Shown here: positions 26,694 to 45,657 of the stretch, piece after piece
Position numbering within the stretch: the stretch's first letter is position 1
Layout: every line of letters starts with the position of its first letter
Assembly: GCA_964547425.1 (NCBI GenBank)
Contig: CAZJNH010000006.1
Coordinates: 6,095-70,094, forward strand
Source: an uncultured Candidatus Saccharibacteria bacterium
GTDB lineage: Bacteria; Patescibacteriota; Saccharimonadia; UBA4664; CAZJNH01
Length of the DNA: 64,000 bases
Direction: 5' to 3'
Position numbers and translations under genes: made by a program
The notes under the pieces: model-generated
What the model was told of the DNA's origin: nothing
What the model saw: the letters and a program-made list of their open reading frames with translations, nothing else
Database searches by the model: none

Positions 26694-26750
26694 GGTCTAA
26701 CCCTTTTTCGTCTCGACCTTTATTTTCATAGATTGTATAGGGTTAGACCT
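26694..26750. repeat. 57-nt palindromic intergenic element, copy a
   Basis: AGGTCTAACCCT-ttttCGTCTC…gatTGTAT-AGGGTTAGACCT; 12-bp perfect stem. Confidence 0.7.
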
Positions 26751-26753
26751 TGG

Positions 26754-27329
26754 TTAAGGGGACCAGTTGGGGTTGCGGCCGGTTAACGCCAGCAGCTTGT
26801 CCTGGACTGATGCGTCTTCGGAGACGGTCTTGGCTGCCTTGAACGCGCCTCCCGAACGCCAATCCTCGGCGTATTTCTGAAAATAGGCATAGGCGGACTC
26901 GACTAGCTCCTCGGGCAATTTGGCGTCTTTACCGATCGCTTTGGCCAAATCCCAGGCGTGAACCAGGTGATCACCGAACATTTGCTCGGCATAGTCAACG
27001 GATGCAGTCTCACCGTGCGACAGCTGGACCGTTTTGTCGTCGGCTCCGGGTGCGCTAAATGCGTCGGTGGCGATCGCTCCGGCATTTGTCCGGGCAGCTT
27101 TTGGGTCATCGCCCAAAACATCACCGTCAAACTTTGTGCCAACTTCGGCAATTGTTTTACCGTCCAGCAACGCTTTTACCCATAAATCTTCACTTGTGAC
27201 GTGATTAACCAAGTCTCGGACGGACCAACCTTCGTCTGGAGTCGGGGAGTCCCATTGCTCGTCGGTTATTTGAGAAACATAGCCATCAAACACCTTCGCA
27301 GCCGAAATGTAATTCGCGATTTGCTTCAT
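26754..27329 (-). CDS. DinB/MDMPI_N-like protein (TIGR03086-like)
   Basis: 191 aa; C-terminal …LLALTGRNPNW; metal-binding His pattern. Confidence 0.5.
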   Translation of the reverse strand: MKQIANYISAAKVFDGYVSQITDEQWDSPTPDEGWSVRDLVNHVTSEDLWVKALLDGKTIAEVGTKFDGDVLGDDPKAARTNAGAIATDAFSAPGADDKTVQLSHGETASVDYAEQMFGDHLVHAWDLAKAIGKDAKLPEELVESAYAYFQKYAEDWRSGGAFKAAKTVSEDASVQDKLLALTGRNPNWSP

Positions 27330-27336
27330 ACCTACT

Positions 27337-27504
27337 CCTATCCGTGTAAAAATTTATAAACTAGCCAGATTCCCAATATTGCGCCGATCGCTCCGGTTAA
27401 TAGCGTCCAAGGCGAGAAGCCGCTGACGCCAAATAGAACCGGAGCGTACCCGCCAGCAACCGATCCGATTGTGCCTGCCAAATAATAACTTCGCTTGTCC
27501 GACA
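27337..27504 (-). CDS. Possible small membrane protein (55 aa)
   Basis: Not in the ORF track; minus-strand translation MSDKRSYYLAGTIGSVAGGYAPVLFGVSGFSPWTLLTGAIGAILGIWLVYKFLHG; weak RBS. Confidence 0.25.
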
Positions 27505-27654
27505 TAGCTTTAGTTTAGCAGTTTGGTTTGTATAAGGTCTCTCCCTCTTTCGTCTAAATGTGACACGAGCCAACCTAGACCAAACGGAACGAGGACTTTC
27601 CGATAAATAGAATACTGCTCCGCAGTGACGACTTGGGATAGGTTGGTGAGATGG

Positions 27655-28854
27655 CTAGTCCTTTTGGCGGAGTTTTTTACCTTTTATCTCGTCCGGCAAA
27701 AAGCCTTTTGCGTGCTGGAAATTGGCCTCCCATTTATAATCCTTGCCGTAATCCAGCTCCTTCATCAACTTGGTTGGCGCGTTTCGCAGATGCAGAGGAA
27801 CCTGGGCGGTCGGATTATCCCGCACCGCGGAGTTGGCGGTGCCAAGCGAATTAGCAACTGCTCGGCTTTTGGGCGCTTCGGCCATATAAATAGTGGCTTG
27901 AGCTAGTATCAACTGGCATTCCGGGAGTCCAACCCGTTCCACCGCCAAGAAACAAGCCGTGGCCTGCTCAAGCGCCCGCGGATCGGCCAGCCCAATGTCT
28001 TCCGAAGCAAAGATCACAATCCGGCGGGCAATAAACTTGGGGTCTTCGCCCGACTCCAGCATTCTTGCCATATAAAACAGCGCCGCGTCGGCATCCGATC
28101 CGCGCATACTTTTGATAAACGCTGAGATCCAGTCGTAGTGCCAATCCCCTTTTTTGTCGTACTTTAAGCCTGTTTTTTGCATCGCTTGTTTGACCGTCTC
28201 AATAGTGATAGCTCCGTCAGTAATCCCGGCAGCGGCCTCCAACCCATTTAGAGCAACGCGGGCGTCGCCGGCTGAGAGTTTGGCTAGCAGTGATTTGGCG
28301 TCAGGTTTAATGACTGCCTTTAGCTCCTTGGACGCATCGGTAATGATCCTTTCAATTTGATCGTCTTTGAGGTTGTGCAATACGACCACTCGACTGCGGG
28401 ACAACAATGGACCTATGACTTCAAAGCTGGGGTTTTCGGTAGTGGCGCCGATTAAGATGATTGTTCCCGCCTCGACGTGCGGCAAAAAGGCGTCTTGTTG
28501 GGCTTTGTTGAAGCGATGGATTTCATCGACAAACAATATCGTCTTTTTGCCAATCTGCTGGCGTTCGCGGGCGGCTTCGATCAGTTTTTTGACTTCCGCG
28601 ATGCCGGTGGTGACCGCCGAAACTTCTTCAAATGCGTATCCGCTGGACGAGGCGATGATGCGGGCCAAAGTCGTTTTCCCTGTTCCCGGCGGACCCCACA
28701 ATATCATCGACACCGGCTGTTTTTTCTCAATTACCGTACGCAAAAATTGATTGGCACCGGTGATGTGATCCTGACCAATAAATTCATCGAGCGATTTAGG
28801 CCGAACCCGGTCAGCTAATGGCCGATAAGCATCCGTCGCAAATAGACTATCCAT
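27655..28854 (-). CDS. rarA: Replication-associated recombination protein A (AAA+ ATPase)
   Basis: 399 aa; Walker A GPPGTGKTT; MgsA/RarA family layout. Confidence 0.85.
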   Translation of the reverse strand: MDSLFATDAYRPLADRVRPKSLDEFIGQDHITGANQFLRTVIEKKQPVSMILWGPPGTGKTTLARIIASSSGYAFEEVSAVTTGIAEVKKLIEAARERQQIGKKTILFVDEIHRFNKAQQDAFLPHVEAGTIILIGATTENPSFEVIGPLLSRSRVVVLHNLKDDQIERIITDASKELKAVIKPDAKSLLAKLSAGDARVALNGLEAAAGITDGAITIETVKQAMQKTGLKYDKKGDWHYDWISAFIKSMRGSDADAALFYMARMLESGEDPKFIARRIVIFASEDIGLADPRALEQATACFLAVERVGLPECQLILAQATIYMAEAPKSRAVANSLGTANSAVRDNPTAQVPLHLRNAPTKLMKELDYGKDYKWEANFQHAKGFLPDEIKGKKLRQKD

Positions 28855-28892
28855 GCCTCACATTATACCTTATAGGCGAACAACGATCGAAC

Positions 28893-30056
28893 TTAAGCTT
28901 TTGGCCACCAGCTGTGGGTGAAAACGTTGTGTAAGATTTCGGCGGCTTCGTCGGGCTTAACCGGACCGGGTTGGGAATAATCATCAATTCGATATGGAAC
29001 GAGTTCGGCCGATAGAAGTTTTCCGCCTTCGAATTTAGCTTTTAAAAATGTTCCTTGCTTTGTCTGGCGCGACCATTCCTGGTCGAAGACAAAGTTGCCT
29101 AGACTGTATAGGGCCAATTTTCCGTGATACCACTCAACTCCCTGTACGGTATGCGGATGAGAACCGATCACTATTGTTGCGCCGGCATCGAGAGCGCGAT
29201 GCGCCACCGTTCGCTGTTCCTCGTTGGCAACATGCGTGTACTCCGTTCCCCAATGATAGTAGACCAGCACCGCATCGGCCTTGGCCTTAGCGGCTTTGAT
29301 ATCGGCTTCCATTTGGCGAACCTGGCTTTCGTTGAACGGAAACCACGGCGCGATCCCGACCATCGCCATGCCAGGTGAAGTCGCCGTGGCGTCGGATCCG
29401 CCAACGATAGTGTCATATCCGAGCATCGCCACTTTAACTCCCTTAACGGACATAATTAATGGCGTGTGTGCCTCGGTAAAATTGTGCCCGCCGCCGAAGT
29501 ATTTAATTCCTCGCTTTTTCAGTGCATTCATGGTGTCGACAAATGCATCAGCTCCAGCGTTAAAGCTGTGGTTGTTGGCCAGGTTCATCGCGTCGATCCC
29601 GGCGTAGGTTAGCCCGTCGGCCACCCTGTCCGGCGAAGCGAACTGCATACAGGTGTTACACAAAATCGTGTGGGCATCCGAAATAGCTGCTTCTTGGTCC
29701 GCGGTGGTTAGATCGGCGTCCTTTACTTGCTTTGCCATCTTCAAAAACGGGTACAACACGCCATGCTGCTGCACTTTTTGATATACGACCCGGCCAATAA
29801 TAATATCTCCCAAGGCATTTAGCGTCCACGAAGACTTCGCCTCGCCGGATTGCTTAACTATCAGACCGGTCTTGAGCGGTACCACCGGAACACCAGCTGC
29901 CGGTTCAGCTGATTGGACGACGGGCGGGGTTGGGACGTCTTGAGCAGTTTGTGCCGGAATCGGTTTGGGCTTGTGAAAATAGCGATAGCCCAGCCAGCCG
30001 GCGGCCAGCGCGATGACGGCAAATACGGCAAGGGAAATCACTAGCCATTTCTTCAT
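28893..30056 (-). CDS. CapA-family metallophosphatase (poly-gamma-glutamate synthesis-like), membrane-anchored
   Basis: 387 aa; N-terminal TM; …VYYHWGTEY…GSHPHTVQG… CapA motifs. Confidence 0.7.
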   Translation of the reverse strand: MKKWLVISLAVFAVIALAAGWLGYRYFHKPKPIPAQTAQDVPTPPVVQSAEPAAGVPVVPLKTGLIVKQSGEAKSSWTLNALGDIIIGRVVYQKVQQHGVLYPFLKMAKQVKDADLTTADQEAAISDAHTILCNTCMQFASPDRVADGLTYAGIDAMNLANNHSFNAGADAFVDTMNALKKRGIKYFGGGHNFTEAHTPLIMSVKGVKVAMLGYDTIVGGSDATATSPGMAMVGIAPWFPFNESQVRQMEADIKAAKAKADAVLVYYHWGTEYTHVANEEQRTVAHRALDAGATIVIGSHPHTVQGVEWYHGKLALYSLGNFVFDQEWSRQTKQGTFLKAKFEGGKLLSAELVPYRIDDYSQPGPVKPDEAAEILHNVFTHSWWPKA

Positions 30057-30093
30057 AACTTAATTGTAACGCTAGCGCTTAACTAAATGAAAA

Positions 30094-30150
30094 GGGAACA
30101 ACCCTCCCTCGTCTAGTCTTTAGTTAAACGGGTTGTATAGGGTTGCACCC
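30094..30150. repeat. 57-nt palindromic intergenic element, copy d (diverged)
   Basis: GGGAACAACCCT-ccCTCGTCT…gggtTGTAT-AGGGTTGCACCC. Confidence 0.55.
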
Positions 30151-30175
30151 TTTTCGGATGGTTGGCTGCGTCAGA

Positions 30176-30577
30176 TTACGGCAGGAATGGAGGTGGGCCA
30201 CCGCACTGGTAGTAGTACTGGAGCCCTAGGCAGAAGACTTGCCACTGCAATGAATTCTGTTGCGAGTACAGGCCGTTTAGCAGGTTCTGGTAGTAATTAA
30301 TCTGAGTCGTCAGGCTAGCGGCCGATGCAGATTCGCCTAGTCCTTTATTGATAAGAGTTTGGCGTGAGGTTTGTAGGGTATTGATCGTATTTTGGTAGCC
30401 GATGATAAGCCGGTTAACGCTTGTTAGCTGGGATTGTGCCGTGGCTAGTTGGGCCTTGAGGTTGGCACAGTAAACCGCAGGCGGTACTTCCGGCGCAGCG
30501 TTAGCCATTGCTGGAATAGCCATTACCCCTAGTGGAATCGCAAACGCTACCATCGAAAGAGCTAGTTTCTTAAACAT
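30176..30577 (-). CDS. Secreted Q/N-rich coiled-coil protein
   Basis: 133 aa from MFKKLALSMVAF… signal peptide; AATGGAG RBS. Confidence 0.5.
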   Translation of the reverse strand: MFKKLALSMVAFAIPLGVMAIPAMANAAPEVPPAVYCANLKAQLATAQSQLTSVNRLIIGYQNTINTLQTSRQTLINKGLGESASAASLTTQINYYQNLLNGLYSQQNSLQWQVFCLGLQYYYQCGGPPPFLP

Positions 30578-30685
30578 AACAGAACTCCATTCATTTATGA
30601 GTTTAGTTAAGCCCTCCCCCTGTAGGATTGCATTGTGCAAAATTCCAAACGAAAAGCCCCCGACGATAAAGTCAAAGACTTTTCG

Positions 30686-31561
30686 TCAGGGGCGATGTAT
30701 GTCGGGACCAAGCTCGTAGATCTCCTGTAGGTACGGACGGAGTTTGCCGAAGGCTTGTTTCTCGATTTGGCGAATCCGTTCGCGCGTCAGGTTGAGCATT
30801 TGCCCAATCGCTTCAAGCGTTTGAGGGTCGTCGTCGAGCAGACCGAAACGCAAGCAGATGATGTCAGCCTCCTGCTCGGTTAGCACTTCTGGCAAACAAG
30901 ACAGCATCTGCGAGTAGGCCACTCGATCCGGGTTCGGAGAACTGCTCCAATCGGGGATAGTGTTGACGTACGCCAAATCGCCGTCTTCGTCGATGGCTCG
31001 GTCAAGCGAACCGATGTATCTGTCGGCCAGCTCCCGCAAGCGATCAACTTTTTCCCGCGTTGTTTCAAGTTTCGCCGCCAGCTCGTCGTCGGTTGGCTCG
31101 CGATTCAGCTTGGTCTCCAGCTGGCTGCGCGCTACCCGAAAACGATTTACCTCGGCGAAAAGGTGCGACGGCAACCGAATCGATTCGCCCTTATCCGATA
31201 TCGCCCGGCCGATGGTTTGGCGGACCCACCATGTCGCATAAGTCGAGAAACGGAAGCCTTTGCGCCAGTCGAACTTCTCGACCGCCTTCATCAAGCCGAG
31301 GTTACCTTCCTGGACCAGGTCGAGGTAGGACATCCCGCGGTTGAAGTATCGGCGGGCGATCTTGGTCACCAGCCGGACATTGGCTTCGATGAACTCGGTC
31401 CGTGCCCGCACGCCATCTGCTCCACCAGCTTCGATCCGCTGCGCTAGCTTGATCTCTTGATCAGGCGTCAACAGCGGCGGACCGTTTTTGACATCGCGCA
31501 GATACAGTCCAACCATGTCGAACGTAAACCCAGGTTCAACGTCGTGCTCGCGCAGCGCCAA
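30686..31561 (-). CDS. RNA polymerase sigma factor, sigma-70 family (RpoD/SigA-like, no region 1.1), TTG start
   Basis: 291 aa; regions 1.2-2-3-4 (…YATWWVRQ…, …LNLTRERIRQIE…); GAGAGGGGG RBS; a perfect TATAAT lies upstream at 31610..31615. Confidence 0.85.
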   Translation of the reverse strand: MALREHDVEPGFTFDMVGLYLRDVKNGPPLLTPDQEIKLAQRIEAGGADGVRARTEFIEANVRLVTKIARRYFNRGMSYLDLVQEGNLGLMKAVEKFDWRKGFRFSTYATWWVRQTIGRAISDKGESIRLPSHLFAEVNRFRVARSQLETKLNREPTDDELAAKLETTREKVDRLRELADRYIGSLDRAIDEDGDLAYVNTIPDWSSSPNPDRVAYSQMLSCLPEVLTEQEADIICLRFGLLDDDPQTLEAIGQMLNLTRERIRQIEKQAFGKLRPYLQEIYELGPDIHRP

Positions 31562-31627
31562 TCTCTACACCCCCTCTCATATTTCAACGTACGCAAACTT
31601 AGCTGCCTGATTATACCGCTTTTGAAG

Positions 31628-32395
31628 CTAGTCGAGGAGGTAGGATTTGTCTTCGTTGAGGTTGTCGAGAATTCGCATATCTTCGGTCGAGAGTTTGAAG
31701 TCGAAGATATCGAAGTTTTCTTTGATTCTGGCTTCATGCCTCGATTTCGGTAGCGTCACCAGATTGTGTTGAATATTCCACCGCAGCAAAACCTGAGCCG
31801 GTGACTTTTTATGCCTGGTAGCGATATCAATCAGGATTTTGTCATTGAGACGATGGCAGCGAGTCAGCGGACTGTAAGCTTCAACTATAATTCCTTGATC
31901 CTGGCAAAATTTAATCAGTTCTTGGTTATAGCGATACGGCGTAACTTCAATTTGGTTAGCAAACGGCTTAACCTTGGCTTTTCCCAGCAGCGCCGGCAGC
32001 CGTTTGAGGCCATAGTTGCTGACGCCAATGTTCTTGGCCAGGCCCCTTGATTGCAACTGCTCCATCACCCGCCAAATGTGGTGCCCCGGCCCAACCGGCG
32101 GCGGCCAATGAACCAGGTACAAATCGACATACTCCAGTTTCAGCCGCTTAAGGCTGTCTTTAAGGGCATGCGCCGGATTCAAGAACTGGGTCGGGAATAG
32201 TTTCGTTGTCACCCAAAGCTTATCGCGATCAAGGCCGGACCGGCGGATCCCCTCCCCTACTCCGGTCTCGTTTTTGTAAATGTAGGCCGTGTCGATGTGC
32301 CGGTAGCCGGCCTCAAGCGCCCATTCCACGGCTTGCTGCGCCTCGGCGTCCGCCATCTGCCAAGTCCCAAATCCAATCTGTGGTATATCTTTCAC
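31628..32395 (-). CDS. Aldo/keto reductase
   Basis: 255 aa; AKR family motifs (…GYRHIDTA…, …IGVSNY…). Confidence 0.8.
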   Translation of the reverse strand: MKDIPQIGFGTWQMADAEAQQAVEWALEAGYRHIDTAYIYKNETGVGEGIRRSGLDRDKLWVTTKLFPTQFLNPAHALKDSLKRLKLEYVDLYLVHWPPPVGPGHHIWRVMEQLQSRGLAKNIGVSNYGLKRLPALLGKAKVKPFANQIEVTPYRYNQELIKFCQDQGIIVEAYSPLTRCHRLNDKILIDIATRHKKSPAQVLLRWNIQHNLVTLPKSRHEARIKENFDIFDFKLSTEDMRILDNLNEDKSYLLD

Positions 32396-32507
32396 TTATC
32401 CATTATAATCTCTCTCTAATTCCGGCTTTCTTGAGTCGGTCGCTCGAATGAGTAAGGGGTTGCCTGCCGCCCTCTGGCGGGTGCGTACCTTGGGAGGTGA
32501 GCCTTCT

Positions 32508-33017
32508 ATGGCTCAGGAAGTGAAGTTTTTGCAGATAGTGCAGGGCCCGCCGCGTTGGGATCTGGTTTTGCACCACCACAACGGCGGCGACATGCACTGG
32601 AGATCGAGCTGGTTGCAGTTCACGATTCAAGACGAATCGGGCAACAAGCGCCAACTTGACGCCATGATCTCCGGCCTGGTCCAGGATGGCTATCGCGGCA
32701 ACAGCGCGTACTTCCTAACCGGGCATACTGACCTCGAGGGCTTTGACCATTTGGTCGGTTACTTCGACCTTACTTCGAGGAAAGGCTGGTTTTGGCTGAT
32801 AAAGAGCAAAGCCGAGCGCCTATCTGACGAAGAGGAAGACATGATCCGGGACTCAGCGGCCGGCGAGCTTCGCCACTTGCTGACGAAGCCACTACCGTTC
32901 GAGGCGATCAACTACATCGGTCTGGCGTTGGCCGAGATCGAGCACCACAAAGCTGTGCAAAGAAGACCAAGCTTCGATCACCGCTACGGCAAGTATCTTA
33001 ACCGAGCGGAAATGTAG
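32508..33017 (+). CDS. Hypothetical protein
   Basis: 169 aa from the internal Met with a GGGAGGTGA RBS. Confidence 0.45.
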   Translation: MAQEVKFLQIVQGPPRWDLVLHHHNGGDMHWRSSWLQFTIQDESGNKRQLDAMISGLVQDGYRGNSAYFLTGHTDLEGFDHLVGYFDLTSRKGWFWLIKSKAERLSDEEEDMIRDSAAGELRHLLTKPLPFEAINYIGLALAEIEHHKAVQRRPSFDHRYGKYLNRAEM

Positions 33018-33096
33018 ATAGAGCCTCAATGCAAGAGCGTTGGGGCTCTTGCATTTAAACCGAACAACAAACGAACGGTTGTGCTAAGATATCTCA

Positions 33097-34653
33097 ATGA
33101 CTCAAGCGCAGGCGCTAGATGTAATGAAGTTGGGGCACAACGTTTTTCTAACCGGCGAGCCGGGTTCGGGCAAAACTTATACTCTCAATAAATTCATCGC
33201 TTTCTGCAAACGCGAAGGTATTGGTGTTGGCGTGACGGCCTCGACCGGCATTGCGGCGACCCACATCGGCGGCATGACCATCCATAGCTGGAGCGGGATA
33301 GCCGTTCATGACGAAATTAGCGACGCGCACTTGGAACGGCTGCAAAACCGCAAACAACTTCAGGCCCGGTTCAAAAAAACCCGGGTACTAATAATCGATG
33401 AGATCTCGATGCTCGACGGAGCCAGGCTGGGGATGATTAACCGCGTTTGCCAGGCAATGAAGCACAGCGACAAACCGTTTGGCGGGTTGCAGGTCATTTT
33501 GTGCGGCGATCTCTTCCAGCTGCCACCGGTTACGCGCGGCCAGCAAGACATCGACTTCGCGCACTTCTCCCCAGCCTGGAAGGACTTAAACCTCAAGGTC
33601 TGCTACCTCTCCGAGCAGCACCGGCAAGAGGAGGACGAATCGATGCTATCTCTGTTGCGCCAAATCCGCTCCGGCGAATTGAGCGACGATGCTATGAAGC
33701 TGCTGGAAGAACGGCTGGAACAAACCAATGAAGATGAGGATATTACTCGCCTTTACTCCCACAACGTCGACGTTGACTCATTAAACGCCAAGCGCTTAGC
33801 TCTAATCGAAGACGAATCAAAAATATTTCAAATGCAAACTCACGGCTCTGCTCATTTGGTGGAGCAGCTGCAAAAGAGCTGCTTGGCGCCGGAAAAATTA
33901 GAACTCAAAGTCGGTGCCCAGGTTTTATGTGTAGCCAACAACCCAGCCGAGGGTTATATGAACGGCACCCGCGCCGAAGTAATCGGCTTTGACGATGGCC
34001 AGCCGGTTATACGACTCGCGGGCGGTAAAAAAATCAAAATGACTCAAAAAACCTGGGCTATCGAAGACGGCGACCGCATATTGGCGGAGGTCGCACAATA
34101 TCCGCTGCGCCTCGCGTGGGCGATTACCGTGCACAAAAGCCAGGGTATGAGCCTCGACGCCGCCGAAGTCGACCTCTCCCGCGCCTTTACGCCCGGTATG
34201 GGTTATGTCGCGCTGTCTCGCTTGCGCCAACTCTCCGGCCTCTACCTTCGCGGCATCAATCAAATGGCTCTGCGGGTTAGCCCAGAAATTACCGAGTTCG
34301 ACGCCAGCCTACGCGCTCAGTCCACCAAAGTAGTCGACAGCTTGTCGGGCATAAATGAAAAAGAGCTGACACAAATGCATCAGCAAGTTAAAACTAATCT
34401 GGCCCAAGACTACGCCGAGTACGACAAAGCCCTCTTCGAAGACTTGCGCACCTGGCGCACGGACCAGGCCAAAAAACAGAAGTTACCAGCCTACATGATC
34501 CTGGACGATAAAACCTTAATCGCTTTAAGCGCCGAACGCCCCCAATCCGAAGCCGACATGCTGCTAGTTTCGGGAATCGGTCCCAAGAAACTAAAAGACT
34601 ACGGCAGCGACCTAATGCGACTCATCAACCAAAAATCCGGTAGACTGTTTTAG
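33097..34653 (+). CDS. SF1B DNA helicase (PIF1/RecD-like) with C-terminal helix-hairpin-helix/HRDC-like module
   Basis: 518 aa; Walker A GEPGSGKTY; PIF1/RecD-like motif order; C-terminal …LLVSGIGPKKLKDYG…. Confidence 0.7.
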   Translation: MTQAQALDVMKLGHNVFLTGEPGSGKTYTLNKFIAFCKREGIGVGVTASTGIAATHIGGMTIHSWSGIAVHDEISDAHLERLQNRKQLQARFKKTRVLIIDEISMLDGARLGMINRVCQAMKHSDKPFGGLQVILCGDLFQLPPVTRGQQDIDFAHFSPAWKDLNLKVCYLSEQHRQEEDESMLSLLRQIRSGELSDDAMKLLEERLEQTNEDEDITRLYSHNVDVDSLNAKRLALIEDESKIFQMQTHGSAHLVEQLQKSCLAPEKLELKVGAQVLCVANNPAEGYMNGTRAEVIGFDDGQPVIRLAGGKKIKMTQKTWAIEDGDRILAEVAQYPLRLAWAITVHKSQGMSLDAAEVDLSRAFTPGMGYVALSRLRQLSGLYLRGINQMALRVSPEITEFDASLRAQSTKVVDSLSGINEKELTQMHQQVKTNLAQDYAEYDKALFEDLRTWRTDQAKKQKLPAYMILDDKTLIALSAERPQSEADMLLVSGIGPKKLKDYGSDLMRLINQKSGRLF

Positions 34654-35591: not shown

Positions 35592-35788
35592 TATCTATGT
35601 ATATACAACGGGCTGGATAGAGTTAGCTAAAATTGTAGTTCTTGACGTATAACTATTGACCAGTTTACAAACGGCGACTAGGATAAAAGTAAATCGCCGC
35701 ACGAGAATTTGAGCCTCAGATACGACGATTTACGCTGACGATTTTTTTCGTCTTCTCCATACTAACTAATTGCTCAAGGAGGGTAAAG

Positions 35789-35980: not shown

Positions 35981-36082
35981 CCGCAAGCAAGGATTACCAC
36001 TGACGGATTATGTCCTGAGACGGTTTTCTTAAATCTTGACGTTCGTATTTTGTTCTATTATGATAAGATAAGCATAAGATCC

Positions 36083-37552: not shown

Positions 37553-37569
37553 TTTTTGCACTTTTAGCA

Positions 37570-37596
37570 AAAAGCCCAGTTAAGGGCTTTTTGTGG
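37570..37596. terminator. Bidirectional intrinsic terminator after rpsJ
   Basis: AAAAAGCCC-agttaa-GGGCTTTTTG. Confidence 0.7.
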
Positions 37597-37947
37597 CTAC
37601 ATTATTGTCTTTATCTCAATATCCACACCCGCCGGGAGGTTTAGGGCCATTAGGGAGTCGATGGTTTTTTGGTTGAACTCGGTGACGTCGATCAAACGTT
37701 TGTGGGTGCGTTGCTCGAACTGCTCCCGGCTGTCTTTGTAGATGTGCGGGCTGCGCAATACCGTGAACTTCTGTTTCTCGGTGGGCAACGGAATCGGCCC
37801 GGCCACCTTGGAGCCATTGCGAATAGCGGTATCTAGAATCTGCTTGGCCGACTGGTCGATAATTTTGTTATCGTAGGCCTTCAGGCGGATCCTGATGCGC
37901 TGCTTGGGCTCTTCTTTGGTGGTTTCGGGCTTCTTATCTTCTGCCAT
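37597..37947 (-). CDS. rpsJ: 30S ribosomal protein uS10
   Basis: 116 aa; …[10 protein letters not shown]… S10 signature; follows tuf. Confidence 0.95.
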
Positions 37948-37982
37948 ATTGAGTAAGGTGCGAGGAGGTATCTAGCTCCTAA

Positions 37983-39158: not shown

Positions 39159-39294
39159 GATGCTGGTTCTCTCCTAATAATTCGTTAGTATTTCGGGCAA
39201 ATTAAAAAACGGTCGCCCGTAATTAGACTTTAAGAATTATAAGCAAGGAGAGCCTATCTGTAAACCCTTTTAGCGCCAACTCGCCCCTCAATCA

Positions 39295-39351
39295 AGGTTC
39301 GACCCTATACAACCCAAGTAATTCACCTTGAGACGAAAAAGGGTCGAACCT
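39295..39351. repeat. 57-nt palindromic intergenic element, copy c (inverted orientation, compensatory stem variant)
   Basis: AGGTTCGACCCT…AGGGTCGAACCT; the stem differs from copies a and b by paired substitutions. Confidence 0.65.
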
Positions 39352-39361
39352 TATTCAAGCC

Positions 39362-39390
39362 TTGACAAAAGGCTTATGTTTGTGTATAGT
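39362..39390 (+). promoter_or_regulatory. Near-consensus promoter with extended -10
   Basis: TTGACA-17 nt-TATAGT preceded by TGTG; structured 97-nt leader with a CCAGTTC-gtat-GAACTGG hairpin; paralogous to 41156..41184. Confidence 0.6.
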
Positions 39391-39488
39391 TATTGCTCAA
39401 TTCCAGTTCGTATGAACTGGTGTCCGCCTAGGCGGAAACGGCGAAGATTCCGACGCCCATTCGGGATTGTTCAGAAAGGAGCAGTCGT

Positions 39489-39806
39489 ATGACTGCCGCA
39501 ACGCTTCGCAGCACGATGCCTCTTCGCAGAGGCCCGTGGAGCTACGCCATCGTCTCCGGCCCCTCTCGCGAGGAGCTGTTCGATGCCCTCCGTTTGAGCG
39601 AGGAGAACCGCAAGGTCAAACTCGTGATTACGTACTGCAAGCCGGGAGAGGTTGGCGCCGAAGTCGAGATCCTGGTCTACATCGACCAGATCGGGCGCGC
39701 CAACAACTTCGGATCGGCCTGGGTGTTCCATGCCACGCTCGGCGATCAACCGCTCATCGGGTCATACAACACCCAAAAGCGCCTCGGTACGATCGCACCG
39801 AGCTAG
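39489..39806 (+). CDS. Hypothetical protein (105 aa)
   Basis: AAGGAG RBS 7 nt upstream of ATG; followed by a terminator. Confidence 0.55.
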   Translation: MTAATLRSTMPLRRGPWSYAIVSGPSREELFDALRLSEENRKVKLVITYCKPGEVGAEVEILVYIDQIGRANNFGSAWVFHATLGDQPLIGSYNTQKRLGTIAPS

Positions 39807-39859
39807 AGCCCGCAACAAGCTTCAAAAGTTGGAGCCGCAGTTGCGGGCTCCTTCTTTTT
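39805..39859 (+). terminator. Intrinsic terminator (duplicated at 40277..40331)
   Basis: GAGCCCGCAAC…GTTGCGGGCTC followed by CTTCTTTTT. Confidence 0.65.
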
Positions 39860-39893
39860 GTACCTAGACAGCATCTGACAAGAGTTTTATAAT

Positions 39894-40250
39894 ATGCGGC
39901 AGCTTTTCGTTATTGTCTTGGCGAAAGGAGCACGAGTGAAACTCAAGCAGCACTTTGGGCAAACGGCGGTCGGTCTGATGTTGATCAGCATGACTGCCTG
40001 GATGGGTACCATCCTCCTGGCACTGGGTGTCGAAAAGGGTCACTTCGAACGTCAGGCAACGCTGCCGTACCTCCTCCTTTTCTTCGGTTTCGCGGTCATC
40101 ACCGAGATGGGGATGATCGCGGTCGAGTGCCAGGCAGGCGTTCACAACGTGATCGCCCGAAAGCACAACAAGAAGCTTCCGCCTTGGGAGCGGCCGGGCT
40201 GGCGTTGGTCAGCCAAGGACATCGACGAGTGGTACGCACAGTACCACTAG
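39894..40250 (+). CDS. Small membrane protein (2-3 TM)
   Basis: 118 aa; hydrophobic helices. Confidence 0.5.
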   Translation: MRQLFVIVLAKGARVKLKQHFGQTAVGLMLISMTAWMGTILLALGVEKGHFERQATLPYLLLFFGFAVITEMGMIAVECQAGVHNVIARKHNKKLPPWERPGWRWSAKDIDEWYAQYH

Positions 40251-40276
40251 AGCCTCTGTACGATCGCACCGAGCTA

Positions 40277-40331
40277 GAGCCCGCATCAAGCTTCAAAAGC
40301 TGGAGCCGCAGTTGCGGGCTCCTTCTTTTTA
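40277..40331 (+). terminator. Intrinsic terminator, second copy
   Basis: GAGCCCGCATC…GTTGCGGGCTC followed by CTTCTTTTT; about 78 nt including upstream flank duplicates 39783..39860. Confidence 0.65.
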
Positions 40332-40525
40332 CTTACGGCCGTCGAGGTATTTGGCGGCGAAGCTCAGGGCGAATGAAGGCAGAATAATGAAAACCGAGGC
40401 CATTACCAGTCGCGTGAAGATCGAATTATCGTCGTGATGGGGTCAGGTTATAACCATTATTAGCCCAAAAACCCCAAACGCGACCGAAGACCCTATAAAG
40501 ATTCTGGTCGCCAGCTTTTGCATGG

Positions 40526-40702
40526 TTATGGCTCCAATTCGGATAATTCTTTCAAATTCAGCAGTTTGTTCTTACTCATGAATTCAATCAAGGGTTTACC
40601 ACAATCCAGGCAAATATCATAGGCCCCAAAACCCACACCTAGGCTGATCGAGGCATCCCGTTTGATGGTCTTCTTGCAGATGTCACACTTGGTAACTGTC
40701 AT
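40526..40702 (-). CDS. Small zinc-ribbon protein (58 aa)
   Basis: Not in the ORF track; MTVTKCDICKKTIKRDASISLGVGFGAYDICLDCGKPLIEFMSKNKLLNLKELSELEP; AAGGAG RBS right after the stop of the upstream gene. Confidence 0.4.
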   Translation of the reverse strand: MTVTKCDICKKTIKRDASISLGVGFGAYDICLDCGKPLIEFMSKNKLLNLKELSELEP

Positions 40703-40712
40703 GAGTCTCCTT

Positions 40713-41051
40713 TCAATTTCTAATTTCTAGCTTTTTCTCGATGAACTTAATTCGCTTCTCATGGTCCCCGTAATCGTCGCTTGAGATCTTCAGCTTACTT
40801 TTTATGACGTTCAGGTTGCCGTCGATATTGTCGAATCGCTCGTCGACTTCAGTGAATCGCGAGTCAATCCTATCGAAACGCTGGTCTATCTCAGTAAATC
40901 TGGCGTCGATTTTGTCGAAACGCTCCTCGTGTTTCGCGTCATACTCCTCAAACGAATTATTTACCGCTGCAGCCAGACCTTCAATCTGCTTTTCAAGCGG
41001 ATCATGAACGACTTCCTTAATGGCTTGTAGGTCTTGGTTGGTCAGAGACAC
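40713..41051 (-). CDS. Tandem-repeat coiled-coil protein
   Basis: 112 aa; at least five 11-residue repeats (ERFDKIDARFTEIDQRFDRIDSRFTEVDERFDNID). Confidence 0.55.
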   Translation of the reverse strand: MSLTNQDLQAIKEVVHDPLEKQIEGLAAAVNNSFEEYDAKHEERFDKIDARFTEIDQRFDRIDSRFTEVDERFDNIDGNLNVIKSKLKISSDDYGDHEKRIKFIEKKLEIRN

Positions 41052-41155
41052 GTTTCCCTCGCTTTCGTATTAGTTTAGCCCGCCCGATGTCATAATTATA
41101 TCGAACAAGAAGCGAACAGGCAAGCCAGTCTAGTCACGGATCGACACGATTTGTC

Positions 41156-41184
41156 TTGACAAAACCCTTATGCTTTGGTATACT
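41156..41184 (+). promoter_or_regulatory. Near-consensus promoter, paralog of 39362..39390
   Basis: TTGACA-17 nt-TATACT; the leader has a CCAATC-aaca-GATTGG hairpin and the same GAAAGGAGCAG RBS block. Confidence 0.6.
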
Positions 41185-41258
41185 AGTGCGATCCAATCAA
41201 CAGATTGGCGTCCCAAGAAATTCAAATACCCTTGTTTCACGATCGAAAGGAGCAGCAA

Positions 41259-41558
41259 TTGCGCCAGCACAAGCTGATGCAAAACGGCGTTCAGATCGGC
41301 GGCGGCATGTCGGACGTTGCGATTGTGGCCTTCAATGGCCCTCTCAACTGGATCGACGTCCAGCCCGCCGACCGAGAGACCATCGGCAACGAGCACTTCG
41401 AAGGTGCCGGGGTCTTCATGCAGGTCGCCGACCGGCGCGTCTGGCTGGAGCCCGAGGACGTCAGAGTCCTCGTCGAAAACCTCCAGCGGGCGAACCACGA
41501 GTTCTTCCGCCGTTGGCGAGAAGCCGATCCTGACCTGTTTGAGGACGAGAGCGCCTAG
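41259..41558 (+). CDS. Hypothetical protein (start uncertain: TTG at 41259 or ATG at 41277)
   Basis: ORF track gives 41205..41558; AAGGAG lies 6 nt upstream of the in-frame TTG at 41259. Confidence 0.45.
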   Translation: MRQHKLMQNGVQIGGGMSDVAIVAFNGPLNWIDVQPADRETIGNEHFEGAGVFMQVADRRVWLEPEDVRVLVENLQRANHEFFRRWREADPDLFEDESA

Positions 41559-41623
41559 AGCGCGAAACAAGGGTGACGGCCTTGAGGCGCCTGCCTCGGC
41601 CTGAGGGGAGATGAACGCTCCCC

Positions 41624-41665
41624 TCCACCCTTAGGTTCTTGAGAAATCGAGAGCCTAAGGGTGGA
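41624..41665 (+). repeat. Conserved 3'-UTR stem-loop, copy 1
   Basis: TCCACCCTTAGG-TTCTTGAGAAATCGAGAG-CCTAAGGGTGGA; preceded by a GGGGAG…CTCCCC hairpin. Confidence 0.65.
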
Positions 41666-41716
41666 AAATCTCCACCGAAGTACCTTGATGAATCACTCTG
41701 AAGGGAGTGACGTTAG

Positions 41717-41932
41717 ATGCAAGAGCGCTTTGGCGCTCGCTGGACGCCTTTGATGATTCTCGTCAACCTGATCGTGGTTGCGGGTATCGTCGGCCTCCTC
41801 TGGTCCATCTTCGGCGCTGACGCGCTGGTCTGGTGGCAGAGATGGCTAATCGGCTACGTTTCTTTGGCGGTAGCCGGCGGCCTTAGCTGGCAAGTCACGG
41901 TCGAAGAACCGGAGAACCGGCAGAACGCCTAA
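41717..41932 (+). CDS. Small two-TM membrane protein
   Basis: 71 aa; GAAGGGAG RBS. Confidence 0.5.
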   Translation: MQERFGARWTPLMILVNLIVVAGIVGLLWSIFGADALVWWQRWLIGYVSLAVAGGLSWQVTVEEPENRQNA

Positions 41933-42069
41933 CGGCATCAAGGGAGCAAGCCCCGACAACGACGTCGGGGCCACCCTCAAGTTTTCACGAAGTTGAAAGT
42001 TTATGGGTGGATAATAATTCCATCGTTCTTTTAGTTTCAAATACCTTGTTGCACGAACAGGGAGGGCAT

Positions 42070-42654
42070 ATGTACCGAGGCAAAGTGGTGCACTACGACC
42101 GCCGGGAGCGAAGCAATTACGGCTTTCTCCAGGCGCAGATCGACGGTCGCCGCCAGAAGGTGTTCTTTCACTTCGGCCGCGGCTGCCAGGTTGGGCTGAG
42201 GATCGTAGACAAGAGCGCCTGCGAGGCGCCTCAGCTGGATTCGTACAGTCGGCCCTCTCGAGAGCCTCAGATCGGCGACGAGCTGGTTTTCTGGCCCGTC
42301 ACGCTCCGCAAAGGACCGGCGGCGGACAGCTGGTGTTACGCCGAGGAATGGGACGAGGCCGAGCAGATCGCCCGAGTCAACAGTCTCACCTTCCGCTACA
42401 TCGAGACTACACAACTCGAACGCCGGCCGGCCGACGAGCCAGTAGTTAAGTGGGAGGGCTACAACACCCTGTCACTACTCGACGAGGTGCTACCTGAGAT
42501 CCAGGTAGTCTTCGACTCGAACGGCGAGTTCGTGGTCGAAAAGACCAAGCTCTGCCTGACTACCGGTCACTTCGAGCGCAAAACCAGCAGTGGCTGGCAC
42601 ACCTGCCAGATCGACCCCAGGATGGTCACCGAAGATGCCGGCGCGACGGCCTAG
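42070..42654 (+). CDS. Protein with N-terminal cold-shock-domain-like OB fold plus C-terminal unknown domain
   Basis: 194 aa from the internal Met (GGGAGGG RBS); GKVVHYDRRERSNYGFLQAQIDGRRQKVFFHF resembles the CSD consensus G.V.WF…KGFGFI…DVFVHF. Confidence 0.5.
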   Translation: MYRGKVVHYDRRERSNYGFLQAQIDGRRQKVFFHFGRGCQVGLRIVDKSACEAPQLDSYSRPSREPQIGDELVFWPVTLRKGPAADSWCYAEEWDEAEQIARVNSLTFRYIETTQLERRPADEPVVKWEGYNTLSLLDEVLPEIQVVFDSNGEFVVEKTKLCLTTGHFERKTSSGWHTCQIDPRMVTEDAGATA

Positions 42655-42687
42655 CAACAAGGTGCCCCGAGCCAGTACGGTTCGGGG

Positions 42688-42728
42688 ACACCCTCAGGTT
42701 CTTGAGAAATCGAGAGCCTAAGGGTGGA
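42688..42728 (+). repeat. Conserved 3'-UTR stem-loop, copy 2
   Basis: Identical 18-nt loop TTCTTGAGAAATCGAGAG; stem has 1 mismatch; preceded by a GCCCCGA…TCGGGG hairpin and followed by a canonical terminator. Confidence 0.65.
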
Positions 42729-42740
42729 ACAATACCAAAA

Positions 42741-42765
42741 AGACCCCGAATTCGGGGTCTTTTTG
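42741..42765. terminator. Bidirectional intrinsic terminator
   Basis: AAAAAGACCCCGAA-TTCGGGGTCTTTTT. Confidence 0.8.
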
Positions 42766-42783
42766 GGTGAAGTGGTAAATGAA

Positions 42784-43179
42784 CTATACTCGGCGCCTCA
42801 TGATCGCATCGATTAGGGCAACTACGAGGAACGCGAGTATGCCATAAACAACCATCGCCACTGCCGTGGTGGTCTCGAACGAGCCGGGGCCGGTGTTAAG
42901 CTGAACTCCTACGGCTCCGAAAAACGGGCTAATAAGTGGACGCGTAACTTGGTAGATAAAAGACACAAAGCCATTTTGCGGATTGGCCGCGAAAAGCCGT
43001 AAAAGCAACCGGACCAATAGGACGGTTTCGACTACTCCGGCTACCCAGAGTAACAGCGAAGCCAGAAACGACATTTCATCAACCACCGCCGTCTCGACAA
43101 AGCTGGTTTGAGAAGCTGGAATTGCCTCGTGGAACTCCTCGTCCCGGCGTTCAATTATCCTTCTGTGACGTTTGTTCAT
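42784..43179 (-). CDS. YggT-family membrane protein
   Basis: …NPQNGFVSFIYQVTRPLISPF… matches the YggT motif; start trimmed to MNKRH (GGAGG RBS). Confidence 0.6.
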   Translation of the reverse strand: MNKRHRRIIERRDEEFHEAIPASQTSFVETAVVDEMSFLASLLLWVAGVVETVLLVRLLLRLFAANPQNGFVSFIYQVTRPLISPFFGAVGVQLNTGPGSFETTTAVAMVVYGILAFLVVALIDAIMRRRV

Positions 43180-43311
43180 ATCGCCTCCGCCTTTATTGCT
43201 CTGCGAGATTACCAGCACCACAATTTAAGATCTTTAGTTATAGTTCCAAACATCCGGCTAAGACTTGGTGTTTTGCCCAAATGAATAGGCGACCGCTGGC
43301 TTGCGGCCGCC

Positions 43312-43494
43312 CTATTGGGCAGCAAGGCCCTCTTCCATTAGTGTCCTGAACTCTTCGTGGCCTGCTTCGTACCGGAGCCTAACGAGCCTGCCAAGCAGTT
43401 CCTGGTCGGTTTCGACCGGTTCCAGCCAGCAACGCAATCGTTGCTGCAGACGTAGCTCCCGCTCGATCCTATCCCGATCCCTTTCGTGGTACAT
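43312..43494 (-). CDS. Hypothetical 60-aa charged protein
   Basis: Stop/start adjacency with the upstream gene; GGAAGAG RBS; hairpin downstream. Confidence 0.4.
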   Translation of the reverse strand: MYHERDRDRIERELRLQQRLRCWLEPVETDQELLGRLVRLRYEAGHEEFRTLMEEGLAAQ

Positions 43495-43682
43495 CAGAAC
43501 TCTTCCGAATAACTAGCGGCGATGATTCCGTCGAAGCTGGCCCTCTCTTCGAGGGTGAAATCTTCAACGTCATCGTCGTCCCAGTCCAAGCCGGAATCAG
43601 AAACGCTCCTGAACGACTGAACAACGGCCAAGACGATGAAGGCAACTACAGAGGCAACTCCGAGTAACAAGAGTAGAACCAT
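43494..43682 (-). CDS. Small membrane-anchored acidic protein
   Basis: 62 aa from MVLLLLLGVASVV…; AGGAGGAGG RBS; the ORF track's longer N-terminus overlaps the upstream gene. Confidence 0.5.
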   Translation of the reverse strand: MVLLLLLGVASVVAFIVLAVVQSFRSVSDSGLDWDDDDVEDFTLEERASFDGIIAASYSEEF

Positions 43683-43743
43683 TGCCTGCCTCCTCCTGTC
43701 CTCGACTGCTTCGGTCAATTTGATTGTAACAGTTATGTTTGGC

Positions 43744-44916
43744 TTACGGGAAGGCGCAGAGGCCGGCTGGCGAGCTGGTCGTGCAGTAGTTGCGTGTCCA
43801 TGAGTTGCCGGTCGAATCGTCTTGGGCATCAAGTATTGTGTTGCCGTGCATCCGGTTTAAGTCTAACTTGACGCCGGTTACGCCTGATTCCAGGTGAATG
43901 CCGTCGGCCTGGTTGTTGTCCGACTGGTTGCGGTTAACCTGGTTGGCGCTACCACCCACCGAGCCAGCGGCCAGCAAAATCCCTTCGTAGGCGTTTCGGA
44001 GGATAGTGTTGCTGTCGATAAATAGCGCGGTGTTGGGTCCTCCTCCAAGATTGCGCACGCCCAGTCCGCCCCATTGCGTGTTGTCGTGGAGCTGGTTGCG
44101 GGTGATTTGGACGTTATCGTTAGCGCCTCCCAGAAAGATCATGAAGCCAAAGCTGCCGTTGGTAGCGTTGTTACTGTCGATCACGCTGTTGTCGGTGTTG
44201 TACCAGTTGGCCATACTGCCGGAGTTGTTTGAGGTGTTTCGGCTAAACCGAACGTTGCTGGTCACTCCCGAGAAGCCTGTTGAGGTAAAATCGGCGCTAT
44301 CGTTGCCGCTAAATGCGTTGGTGTCGACGAAGGCGTTTTGAACCTGGTCGGTGTAGATACCGCTGCCGCTAGCCGGTCCTGTGGCATTGTTGTTGCGGAT
44401 ATTGTTAAGCTGGACGATTTGCTGTTTGACCCCGTCGCCGCCCAGGTAAATACCTTCGGCGTTACCCTGGATGATATTGCGGCTGATTAAGGCACCGGAA
44501 GCACCGCTGATCAGGTTAACTCCGACGCTGGCTCCCTGAATCGTAAAGCCCAAGATACTGACGTTCGCAGCGTTAATTATGAAGTCGTTGGTGGTGCCAT
44601 CAACCACCGCCTCCTGGCTAGCCGGAACATTGCGGCCGCGGGCATCGTTTTGCTGCGGGCCCATTAAAAGTACCTGTTTGTTAACACTCACGTCCTCGTT
44701 GTAGGTAGCTGCCAGAACCTTGACCGTGCCGCCGGTGGCGACGGCGTTAACTCCGTCCTGGATAGTGCAGTACGGGTGAGCCGGCGTGCCGTCTTGGGCT
44801 AAGCCACAGTGCGCTTTATCGACGTAAACCAGACTTGGCGCGGCCAAGGCTAGCGCCGGCGAAATGATTGCACTTACCAAAACGGCTGCGATTAGTCTGG
44901 AAATCAATTTTTTCAT
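43744..44916 (-). CDS. Secreted right-handed parallel beta-helix repeat protein
   Basis: 390 aa; signal peptide; N/G/S/T-rich PbH1-like repeats; its own TATAAT promoter at 44946..44951. Confidence 0.65.
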   Translation of the reverse strand: MKKLISRLIAAVLVSAIISPALALAAPSLVYVDKAHCGLAQDGTPAHPYCTIQDGVNAVATGGTVKVLAATYNEDVSVNKQVLLMGPQQNDARGRNVPASQEAVVDGTTNDFIINAANVSILGFTIQGASVGVNLISGASGALISRNIIQGNAEGIYLGGDGVKQQIVQLNNIRNNNATGPASGSGIYTDQVQNAFVDTNAFSGNDSADFTSTGFSGVTSNVRFSRNTSNNSGSMANWYNTDNSVIDSNNATNGSFGFMIFLGGANDNVQITRNQLHDNTQWGGLGVRNLGGGPNTALFIDSNTILRNAYEGILLAAGSVGGSANQVNRNQSDNNQADGIHLESGVTGVKLDLNRMHGNTILDAQDDSTGNSWTRNYCTTSSPAGLCAFP

Positions 44917-44977
44917 CAGGAAACCCTCGGTTAATAACTATCTGGATTATACCTGTTGGCTACTGATCGTCTTTGTG

Positions 44978-45024
44978 CAGACACACAAAGAAAAAGGCGG
45001 CCGGGATTAAGCGTCCCGACCGCC
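44978..45024 (-). terminator. Intrinsic terminator after the 45030 gene
   Basis: minus strand GGCGGTCGGGACGCTTAATCCCGGCCGCC followed by TTTTTCTTTG. Confidence 0.6.
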
Positions 45025-45029
45025 TCGAA

Positions 45030-45215
45030 TTAACGCCTTTGTAGTACGTGGTACTCGGTCGTAGTACCAGGCTCGTCGTTGGTCTTGGCGCGTAGCTTTT
45101 CGACTCTACGATCAGCCCGTTTCTCAGACCAGTGCCGGCTTTTGGCCTGCAAACTGTCGGGCCGGTGTCCCTTTTTGCCCCAAACGATCACGACTATCTG
45201 CCACTTGCGCCTCAT
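45030..45215 (-). CDS. Hypothetical basic 61-aa protein
   Basis: 4-nt overlap with the upstream gene. Confidence 0.4.
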   Translation of the reverse strand: MRRKWQIVVIVWGKKGHRPDSLQAKSRHWSEKRADRRVEKLRAKTNDEPGTTTEYHVLQRR

Positions 45216-45547
45216 ACCGCCGCCTTTTTGCTGAACGCGCCCGGTTCGATGAGTTCGAAGAACGCCATCAACCGGTACATCAGCTCGTCGAACGCCGGTC
45301 CTGGATTACGGACCAGCATCGTCTCGTGCACGATCACCCAGCGCAGCCGCGACTCCCGCAGCTCGTCCATTGTGATCGGGTGCGGCCAGATGTCTTGCCG
45401 CTGCAGCGTCCGAATGGCGCCGCCCAGCGTCCAGCAGCTGATTAGCAGCCGGATCTGCCCCTCCGGACCGGTTATGGCAATGTGCCATCGGCGAAAAACC
45501 GGGCCGGTAAACGCACTCATCAACTGCTCGTAGCGGTTGGCCTTCAA
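45212..45547 (-). CDS. Hypothetical protein (111 aa)
   Basis: ORF with downstream coupling. Confidence 0.4.
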   Translation of the reverse strand: MKANRYEQLMSAFTGPVFRRWHIAITGPEGQIRLLISCWTLGGAIRTLQRQDIWPHPITMDELRESRLRWVIVHETMLVRNPGPAFDELMYRLMAFFELIEPGAFSKKAAV

Positions 45548-45600
45548 AGTACCTCCTGACCTGTCAAAGAGTGGCTAGATTATAACGATTAACCTGAATA

Positions 45601-45657
45601 GGGTCTAACCCTTTTTCGTCTCAAAATGGATTGCTTAGATTGTATAGGGTTAGACCC
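45601..45657. repeat. 57-nt palindromic intergenic element, copy b
   Basis: GGGTCTAACCCT-ttttCGTCTC…gatTGTAT-AGGGTTAGACCC immediately after the fusA stop. Confidence 0.7.

Follow-up and report, generated by a model that had tools for sequence, protein, structure and literature searches.

What is a hairpin-forming sequence of some 60 nt that recurs between the genes of a Saccharibacterium, and how did it come to sit there? The question is raised by a 64,000-nt stretch of DNA (64 kb, called the window throughout; positions 6,095 to 70,094 of contig CAZJNH010000006.1) from an uncultured Candidatus Saccharibacteria bacterium, in which the best named homologues of EF-G, RarA and EF-Tu belong to Candidatus Saccharimonadales or Saccharimonadia (TM7, Patescibacteria). 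Genomes of the candidate phyla radiation (CPR) are small, tightly packed and usually described as repeat-poor. The window holds a family of hairpin repeats with four intact copies (a to d) and one decayed copy (e). Here, we propose that this element belongs to the repeats of the repetitive extragenic palindromic (REP) or hairpin miniature inverted-repeat transposable element (MITE) kind, being palindromic, non-coding, and specific to its lineage, and that it has spread into the spacers between stop codons and promoters, a reading that we hold to be moderately probable.

A preliminary description of this DNA had listed the four intact copies, and we find them in the same places within 1-2 nt (Table 1). 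The elements are 59-65 nt long and have no coding capacity. In the orientation that we call forward (AAGGTCTAACCCTTTTTCGTCTC ... TTGTATAGGGTTAGACCTT), they are bounded by terminal inverted repeats (AAGGTCTAACCCT / AGGGTTAGACCTT), which had been put at 11-12 bp and prove to be longer, at 13-15 bp. The stem that these form encloses a loop of 31-33 nt; in a, b, and c it is symmetric, with no interruption, and in d (AAAAGGGAACAACCCT / AGGGTTGCACCCTTTT) it carries an internal mismatch of 2 nt. Adjoining the stem on its inner side are two unpaired blocks, CCCTTTTTCGTCTC and TTGTATAGGGT (the left one in the context CCCT(TTTT)CGTCT), which had been noted before; they do not vary among a, b, and c and barely differ in d. 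Between them lies a centre of ~14-15 nt, the sequence of which is unrelated from copy to copy. An inner stem of 4 bp (GTCT/AGAT) can be drawn, which we consider unreal, as it is mostly G.U and exists on one strand only. Each arm by itself is a small palindrome, (A)GGGT-N3-ACCC(T).

When the four intact copies were made into a covariance model and the window was searched with filters off, they scored 82-92 bits and no further copy came up, the next-best matches (<19 bits) being ordinary terminator hairpins. The left and right half-motifs, allowing up to 3 mismatches, each have 8 matches (2.7 and 0.6 expected, respectively), a number that none of 100 shuffles reached. The degenerate relative suspected near 27521-27560 is real, being the decayed copy e: it has kept the left arm and the CTTTCGTCT block (including CGTCT), the TTGTATAGGG block is deleted, and the right arm has shrunk to TAGACC.

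Table 1. Positions of the palindromic element (copies a to e) and of a second hairpin repeat (family f) in the window.
Feature	Positions	Strand	Covariance-model score (bits)	Remarks
Copy a	26692-26751	+	88.5	Intact
Copy b	45600-45658	+	91.9	Intact
Copy c	39294-39352	-	92.3	Intact; inverted relative to the others; three compensatory stem pairs
Copy d	30090-30154	+	82	Intact but diverged
Copy e	27534-27581	+		Decayed; member of repeat family D11
Family f, copy 1	8962-9040	.		~80-nt hairpin repeat; repeat family D2
Family f, copy 2	51478-51556	.		91% identical to copy 1; just past the stop of an ABC-F-type gene (51556-53211, -)

Is it the hairpin that has been preserved? The intact copies fold stably both as RNA (-22 to -32 kcal/mol, z -3.8 to -7.4, on either strand) and as DNA (-10.7 to -15 kcal/mol, z -3.2 to -6.1), while copy e has no fold (DNA folding, z +0.58). 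Across the four intact copies, 5 of the 14 stem pairs have changed on both sides and none on one side only, with 96.4% of cells paired. None of 500 shuffles equalled the observed covariation score and, as a control, sliding the 3' partner by 1-3 columns brought pairing down to 12-62%. The compensatory change reported for copy c is thus found as described, with three adjacent pairs switched (C-G to T-A, T-A to C-G, and A-T to G-C) and pairing kept. These three, being adjacent and all transitions, may represent few events. Copy d, for its part, has one additional switched pair. In addition, at pair 11/68 copies a and c share A-T and copies b and d share G-C, whereas the inner blocks group a with b and c with d, so that at least one further independent switch is needed. 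The proposal that structure is under selection is borne out to this extent: the covariation is suggestive, not conclusive, of a constraint on hairpin pairing, with four sequences to draw on. In a and c, moreover, the single arm is an imperfect mini-palindrome (A.C and G.T) and the arm-to-arm pairing is perfect, from which it follows that what is preserved is the long hairpin and not two separate operators. The stem proper contains no G.T or G.U pair, candidate G.U pairs occurring only in the doubtful 4-bp inner stem and on the strand antisense to the flanking genes; a stem of Watson-Crick pairs alone is no less compatible with a hairpin of DNA than with one of RNA.

All copies are intergenic, as had been claimed. 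Copy a begins 2 nt past the stop codon of a DinB/MDMPI-like gene (26754-27329, -) and lies 24 nt ahead of the ATG of a 92-aa open reading frame (ORF; start 26667, -). Copy b is 6 nt past the stop of fusA (45665-47758, -) and 52 nt upstream of a 111-aa ORF, and copy d is 21 nt past the stop of a 154-aa ORF and 33 nt ahead of the start (30056) of a PGA_cap gene that appears to be leaderless. Copy e is 73 nt past the rarA stop and 28 nt upstream of a 55-aa ORF (27338-27505, -), also apparently leaderless. Copy c follows no gene end; it is situated 135 nt upstream of the tuf start and ~136 nt from an ORF on the + strand, in a divergent promoter region with consensus promoters on both sides (TTTACA-17-TATAAT for tuf, -, and TTGACA-17-TATAGT for the other, +). 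Hence, of the two copies said to follow directly on the stops of highly expressed genes, b does so and c does not. The genes downstream of the copies (the 92-aa, 55-aa, and 111-aa ORFs, the PGA_cap gene, and a 105-aa ORF or tuf) share no function, and relative to the gene that follows, the five copies all point the same way.

The closest relative that could be retrieved is GCA_964478595.1 (loci L004, L005, and L007), with Logan contigs L006 and L008 covering part of the same junctions. Protein identity between this relative and the window is 97% for EF-G, 93% for EF-Tu, and 81% for RarA, and DNA identity is 74-85%. The junctions orthologous to those of a, b, c, and d are all without the element in L004, L005, and L007, and in L006 and L008 where these cover them. 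At site b, L004 reads TAA-AACCGCTCaatcGAGCGGTTTTTTGA-TATAAT, with a canonical terminator (AACCGCTCaatcGAGCGGTTTTTT) in the place of the element and with the same -10 box and 5' untranslated region (CTTTGACA..AGGAG) as in the window. At site a, the DinB-like and 92-aa genes overlap at GTGA in L005 and are separated by an unrelated 46-nt spacer in L006; the window has an 86-nt spacer made up of the element and TTATAATAGAGGC-ATG. At site d, the promoter in L005 (TAGCGTTACAAT-N6-ATG, with a TACAAT box) stands right after the stop codon, without the element. Finally, at site c, a homologous tuf promoter is present in L007 and L008, and no element lies upstream of it. Judging from such filled and empty sites, it is the element alone that was inserted, with no gene accompanying it.

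Wider searches gave a similar picture. The covariance model had no match in 66 kb of the relatives, and the GGGT-N3/4-ACCC palindrome is absent from ~53 kb of their sequence. The pattern CCCT-N4-CGTCT-N16-22-TTGTATAGGGT, which matches all four intact copies and would miss diverged relatives, found no true match in GTDB representative genomes and JGI metagenomes (a single Bacteroides sequence, without an inverted repeat, is a chance hit) and none in IMG/VR viral contigs. BLAST against plasmids and phages gave no credible match, and no parent element with matching inverted repeats was seen there or in the window. Rfam yielded no match at the gathering threshold in the window and nothing relevant in E-value mode around a, e, d, and c. 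As far as is visible, the family would seem to be confined to this lineage, and gain at each site would be the simplest history.

What was copied along with the element? No target-site duplication is visible in any copy, the bases just outside the stems being TTT and GG in a, AAT and GG in b, AAT and GA in c, and TGA and TCG in d. The MITE-like mobility suggested in the preliminary description is in keeping with the empty orthologous sites and finds no support in target-site duplications. On the promoter side, ~8 nt (consensus ATWCAAR in gene direction) are weakly common to most copies, though not to the pairs a/d, c/d, and d/e. On the other side, a longer extension is seen in the a/c pair only, which shares ~20 nt (GGTTAAGGGGACCAGTTGG vs GATTGAGGGG-CGAGTTGG); among 20000 random 25-mers from the window, 13 align to the flank of a as well as that of c does. 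In a, this shared stretch belongs natively to the DinB-like ORF, as its 3' end, and encodes P-N-W-S-P before the stop (P-K-W-S-A-K in L005 and P-D-W-K in L006, likewise before the stop). As the flank of c resembles this native gene end, c seems to descend from an a-like locus from which some flank was taken along. Beyond these few bases the copies have nothing in common, and with similarity ending within ~8 nt on one side and ~20 nt on the other, segmental duplication does not account for them.

We favour a REP- or MITE-type repeat because the copies are non-coding, intergenic, and lineage-specific, because the stem is compensated, because e has decayed, because c has no apparent RNA role, and because the neighbouring genes are unrelated. 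Copy c in particular keeps a perfect stem though it lies in a divergent promoter region without any mRNA 3' end. How might such a repeat spread? A trans-acting enzyme encoded elsewhere in the genome would recognise the hairpin and the conserved blocks at its foot during copying, and its substrate would probably be folded single-stranded DNA, given that target-site duplications are lacking, that the stem has no G-T pairs, and that the blocks at its foot are conserved and single-stranded. Enzymes of the HUH/Y1 type are the textbook example of copying via a folded single strand. Such copying could carry flanking sequence along, as c may illustrate with its ~20 nt resembling the native gene end beside a. 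Copies would then survive only where they are harmless, just upstream of the -35 and -10 boxes of the next, often leaderless, gene; in a compact genome with spacers of 0-50 nt, tolerated insertion is the simplest explanation of this position. Where a copy is transcribed (a, b, and d), its hairpin of -22 to -30 kcal/mol may, like those of REP and Correia elements, stabilise the upstream mRNA 3' end or reduce read-through, which would be a secondary effect.

Several points weigh against a mobile repeat. The main weakness is that the ends of a and b agree at 21 + 21 positions save for one compensated pair while their central ~14 nt are unrelated, a contrast that calls for several source elements differing in their centres, or for locus-wise selection on the ends, and not for uniform neutral decay. 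Only five copies are known, all within the 64-kb window, and none of the ~30 window ORFs scanned against Pfam is a transposase, a REP-associated tyrosine transposase (RAYT), an integrase, or a tyrosine recombinase. Neither a precise empty-site footprint nor a target-site duplication can be defined, as the flanks of the relatives (74-85% nucleotide identity) are too diverged; at that identity, the relatives could formally have lost the element as well. Lastly, the common orientation of the five copies could indicate a promoter-linked function, the chance of such agreement being 1 in 16.

The alternative that survives best, though we consider it unlikely, is a cis-acting structured RNA or DNA element selected locus by locus, whether as a terminator lacking a U-tract, as a stabiliser of 3' ends, or as an insulator between transcription units. 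It draws on the short distances of a, b, and d from the preceding stop codons, on the covarying stem, on the perfect conservation of the ends of a and b around a free centre, and on site b, where L004 has its canonical terminator exactly in the place of the element and where a consensus terminator scan of the window finds no terminator after fusA other than the copy b hairpin. A conventional Rho-independent terminator, which the preliminary description had put up for testing, can be rejected on anatomy: a loop of 31-33 nt is unfit, the 3' tails in gene direction (UUAAACAAAU, UAUUCAGGUU, and UUAUUCAAGC) contain no U-tract, and the terminator scan catches only a 5-bp arm of b and a 7-bp arm hairpin of d. 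Canonical hairpin-plus-U terminators, moreover, are used elsewhere in this same genome. Against a locus-by-locus role in any form stand copy c, which has no gene end upstream of it, the decay of copy e, the relatives in which the same junctions work without the element, and the lack of G.U pairs in the stem.

A bolder reading, which we regard as quite unlikely, is that the hairpin, the foot blocks, and the AGGGT-N3-ACCCT module together form the substrate of an undescribed hairpin-dependent copying system in Patescibacteria, the copies of which are also functional and rewire operon structure. Copying of this sort would produce no target-site duplication, and flanking DNA could be taken along. 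Its copies would replace canonical terminators (as at fusA) and split overlapping genes into leaderless transcription units (as at copy a), so that, if true, a selfish repeat would be actively rewiring operons in a minimal CPR genome.

Could the arms instead be operators for a dimeric DNA-binding protein that regulates the adjacent promoters? The 13-bp palindrome AGGGT-N3-ACCCT occurs twice per element, 46-47 bp apart, and once in family f (Table 1), and is thus a module common to both repeat families; AGGGTNNNACCCT is found 13 times in the window at up to 1 mismatch, against 1.4 expected. The promoter-side arm is centred, by our own count, at ~-31 to -35 from the deduced transcription start in a, b, and e, and the uniform orientation of the five copies to the downstream gene is in line with regulation. 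The distance to the promoter, however, varies over the whole set from ~-31 to -51, the downstream genes are functionally unrelated, and the sites are absent in the relatives. A dimer, moreover, would usually leave the central N3 unread, and yet in a, b, and c the N3 of one arm is the exact reverse complement of that of the other; together with the imperfect arms of a and c that pair perfectly with each other, this makes the operator reading very unlikely in our view.

Integron attC sites ("59-base elements") folded from single-stranded DNA have the consensus boxes RYYYAAC (R'') and GTTRRRY (R'), and the arms of a and b do contain GTCTAAC and GTTAGAC, in elements whose size (~57-60 nt), variable centre, and position after gene ends would fit. 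We nevertheless reject this identification, and hold it to be scarcely credible, for its fold symmetry, for the lack of an integrase and of cassettes, and for the insertion of the element alone: the stem has neither extrahelical bases nor an unpaired central spacer of the attC type, c has one mismatch per box and d no match, there is no tyrosine recombinase among the window ORFs scanned, the neighbours are housekeeping genes (fusA, tuf, and rarA) and a sigma-70 gene instead of cassettes, the empty sites miss the element only and not a gene plus its site, and a match of 7 degenerate positions inside an inverted repeat has a chance of ~1 in 70.

Three further candidates were rejected. A composite element bounded by b and c (inverted, 6.2 kb apart, between fusA and tuf; pair I1) is contradicted by the relative, in which homologues of at least part of the segment between them (the 391-aa beta-helix gene and the 41.5-42.7 kb repeats) lie downstream of fusA although b is missing, and in which tuf has no c upstream of it. 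The element does not carry a promoter of its own, as only b has an arm (TAGACC, 17 nt from TATAAT) at the distance of a -35 box, the spacing from arm to -10 box ranges from ~14 to 39 nt, and the promoters of b and d, being conserved in the relatives, are native. Finally, single arms are not found elsewhere in the window, which disposes of a DNA uptake sequence.

The element is not the only hairpin repeat in the window. The two copies of family f (Table 1) each contain a hairpin of ~60 nt (-22 to -33 kcal/mol) with the tip AAAAGGGTTACACCCTT followed by TTGAGTCAAAT. The tip sequence AAAAGGGTTACACCCTTAACAGAT matches the promoter-side arm and flank of copy a at 20 of 24 positions (z 5.4-6.4 against shuffles), and the GGGT-N3-ACCC core of family f is absent from the sequence of the relatives that was scanned. 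The 24-nt module in common suggests that the hairpin repeats of this genome may form a small superfamily. The gene beside family f copy 2 is called ABC-F-type on the Pfam domains of its counterpart in L004, after which the spacer is just 39 nt.

A third hairpin repeat, CCACCCTTAGGTTCTTGAGAAATCGAGAGCCTAAGGGTGG, has copies at 41624-41666, 41972-42012, and 42689-42729, in a region of small ORFs without known function. GCA_964478595.1 (L004 16257-16379, 16833-16915, and 18105-18212) has conserved this repeat at 87-98% identity, which is not so for the main element. Its Rfam matches are sub-threshold only. A conserved cis-regulatory role is conceivable, and the contig break in the relative may be due to this repeat.

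The same region is notable for the distance between fusA and tuf, which are adjacent in the classical str operon. In the window (39159-45664) they are 6.5 kb apart with small ORFs of unknown function between them, and a contig from a more distant member of the Saccharimonadales has ~1.8 kb between them, with different ORFs; the gap appears to be a hotspot of variable content. Just to the right of copy c, an 87-nt direct repeat (39773-39859 and 40244-40330, 93% identical) comprises the 3' end and terminator of each of two small paralogous ORFs (+) that lie side by side.

Near copies a, e, and d, -10 boxes (TATAAT, TACAAT, or TAAACT) end 6 nt before an ATG without a Shine-Dalgarno sequence (26665-26680, 27503-27518, and 30054-30069), and the same arrangement is seen in L005 (7480-7500 and ~11990-12010). 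It is this spacing that leads us to take the genes after a (box TATAAT), d (TACAAT), and e (TAAACT) as leaderless, and it suggests that leaderless mRNAs may be common in this Saccharimonadales lineage.

As to the remaining gene content, the ~30 ORFs scanned against Pfam included a sigma-70 factor, an aldo-keto reductase, a PIF1 helicase, a PD-(D/E)XK nuclease, a DNA methylase, S10, and CHAP and M23 cell-wall enzymes. The segment 34000-38000, which separates S10/tuf from the PIF1 helicase, forms an island of low GC (0.45-0.47 vs 0.52-0.55 elsewhere) and contains the PD-(D/E)XK nuclease, an N6/N4 DNA methylase, and a 192-aa ORF. L005 has other genes after S10. The island is probably a horizontally acquired restriction-modification module.

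What would the repeat family mean for the study of these bacteria? In the literature that could be searched, we found no paper on REP- or MITE-like repeats in Saccharibacteria or Patescibacteria. The family could be used to trace recent genome dynamics in an epibiotic lineage and may explain contig breaks in assemblies. It also offers a natural experiment, with a hairpin placed between translationally coupled genes or replacing a terminator. Should the family be confirmed across the genome, this would amount to a useful annotation of modest reach and not to the discovery of a principle.

How, then, does the element compare with known systems? Like an intrinsic terminator, it is a stable hairpin just past stop codons, and after fusA it replaces a canonical one; unlike a terminator, it has a loop of ~31-33 nt instead of 3-8 nt, no U-tract in the sense direction, sequence blocks conserved across copies, and one copy in a divergent promoter region. 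With attC sites it shares a similar size, the hairpin fold, the variable centre, and, in a and b, heptamers like RYYYAAC and GTTRRRY. It differs from them in having no extrahelical bases or cassette organisation, in the absence of an integrase from the window, and in sitting alone between conserved housekeeping genes.

The hairpin MITEs (Correia elements of Neisseria, and the RUP and BOX repeats of pneumococci) are nearer. They too are small, intergenic, and non-coding, have terminal inverted repeats, are present or absent at orthologous sites, lie near promoters, and can fold in transcripts. Correia elements, however, duplicate TA where our element has no target-site duplication, and the inverted repeats of Correia-type MITEs are 26 bp long as against 13-15 bp here. 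The centre of our element, in addition, is not conserved, and no element-borne promoter is consistently placed.

REP sequences and REPINs are palindromes mobilised by RAYT, a Y1 HUH transposase whose gene is usually flanked by REPs, and their hairpins can protect mRNA 3' ends. Our element is longer (~60 nt, with an interior of 31-33 nt bearing two invariant blocks), has no GTAG or GTGG at its foot (the flanks being TTGTTT, CTGAAT, TTGAAT, and ATGAAA), and is a single hairpin instead of an inverted pair. No RAYT is found among the window ORFs scanned, and REP/REPIN copies number tens to hundreds per genome; of our element, 64 kb contain five copies, one of them decayed. What the two have in common is that they are short, non-coding extragenic palindromes with a compensated stem and a variable loop, without target-site duplications, often just past stop codons, and restricted to a single lineage. 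The element opens no new category and, on our reading, extends the known REP/MITE kind into a poorly studied phylum.

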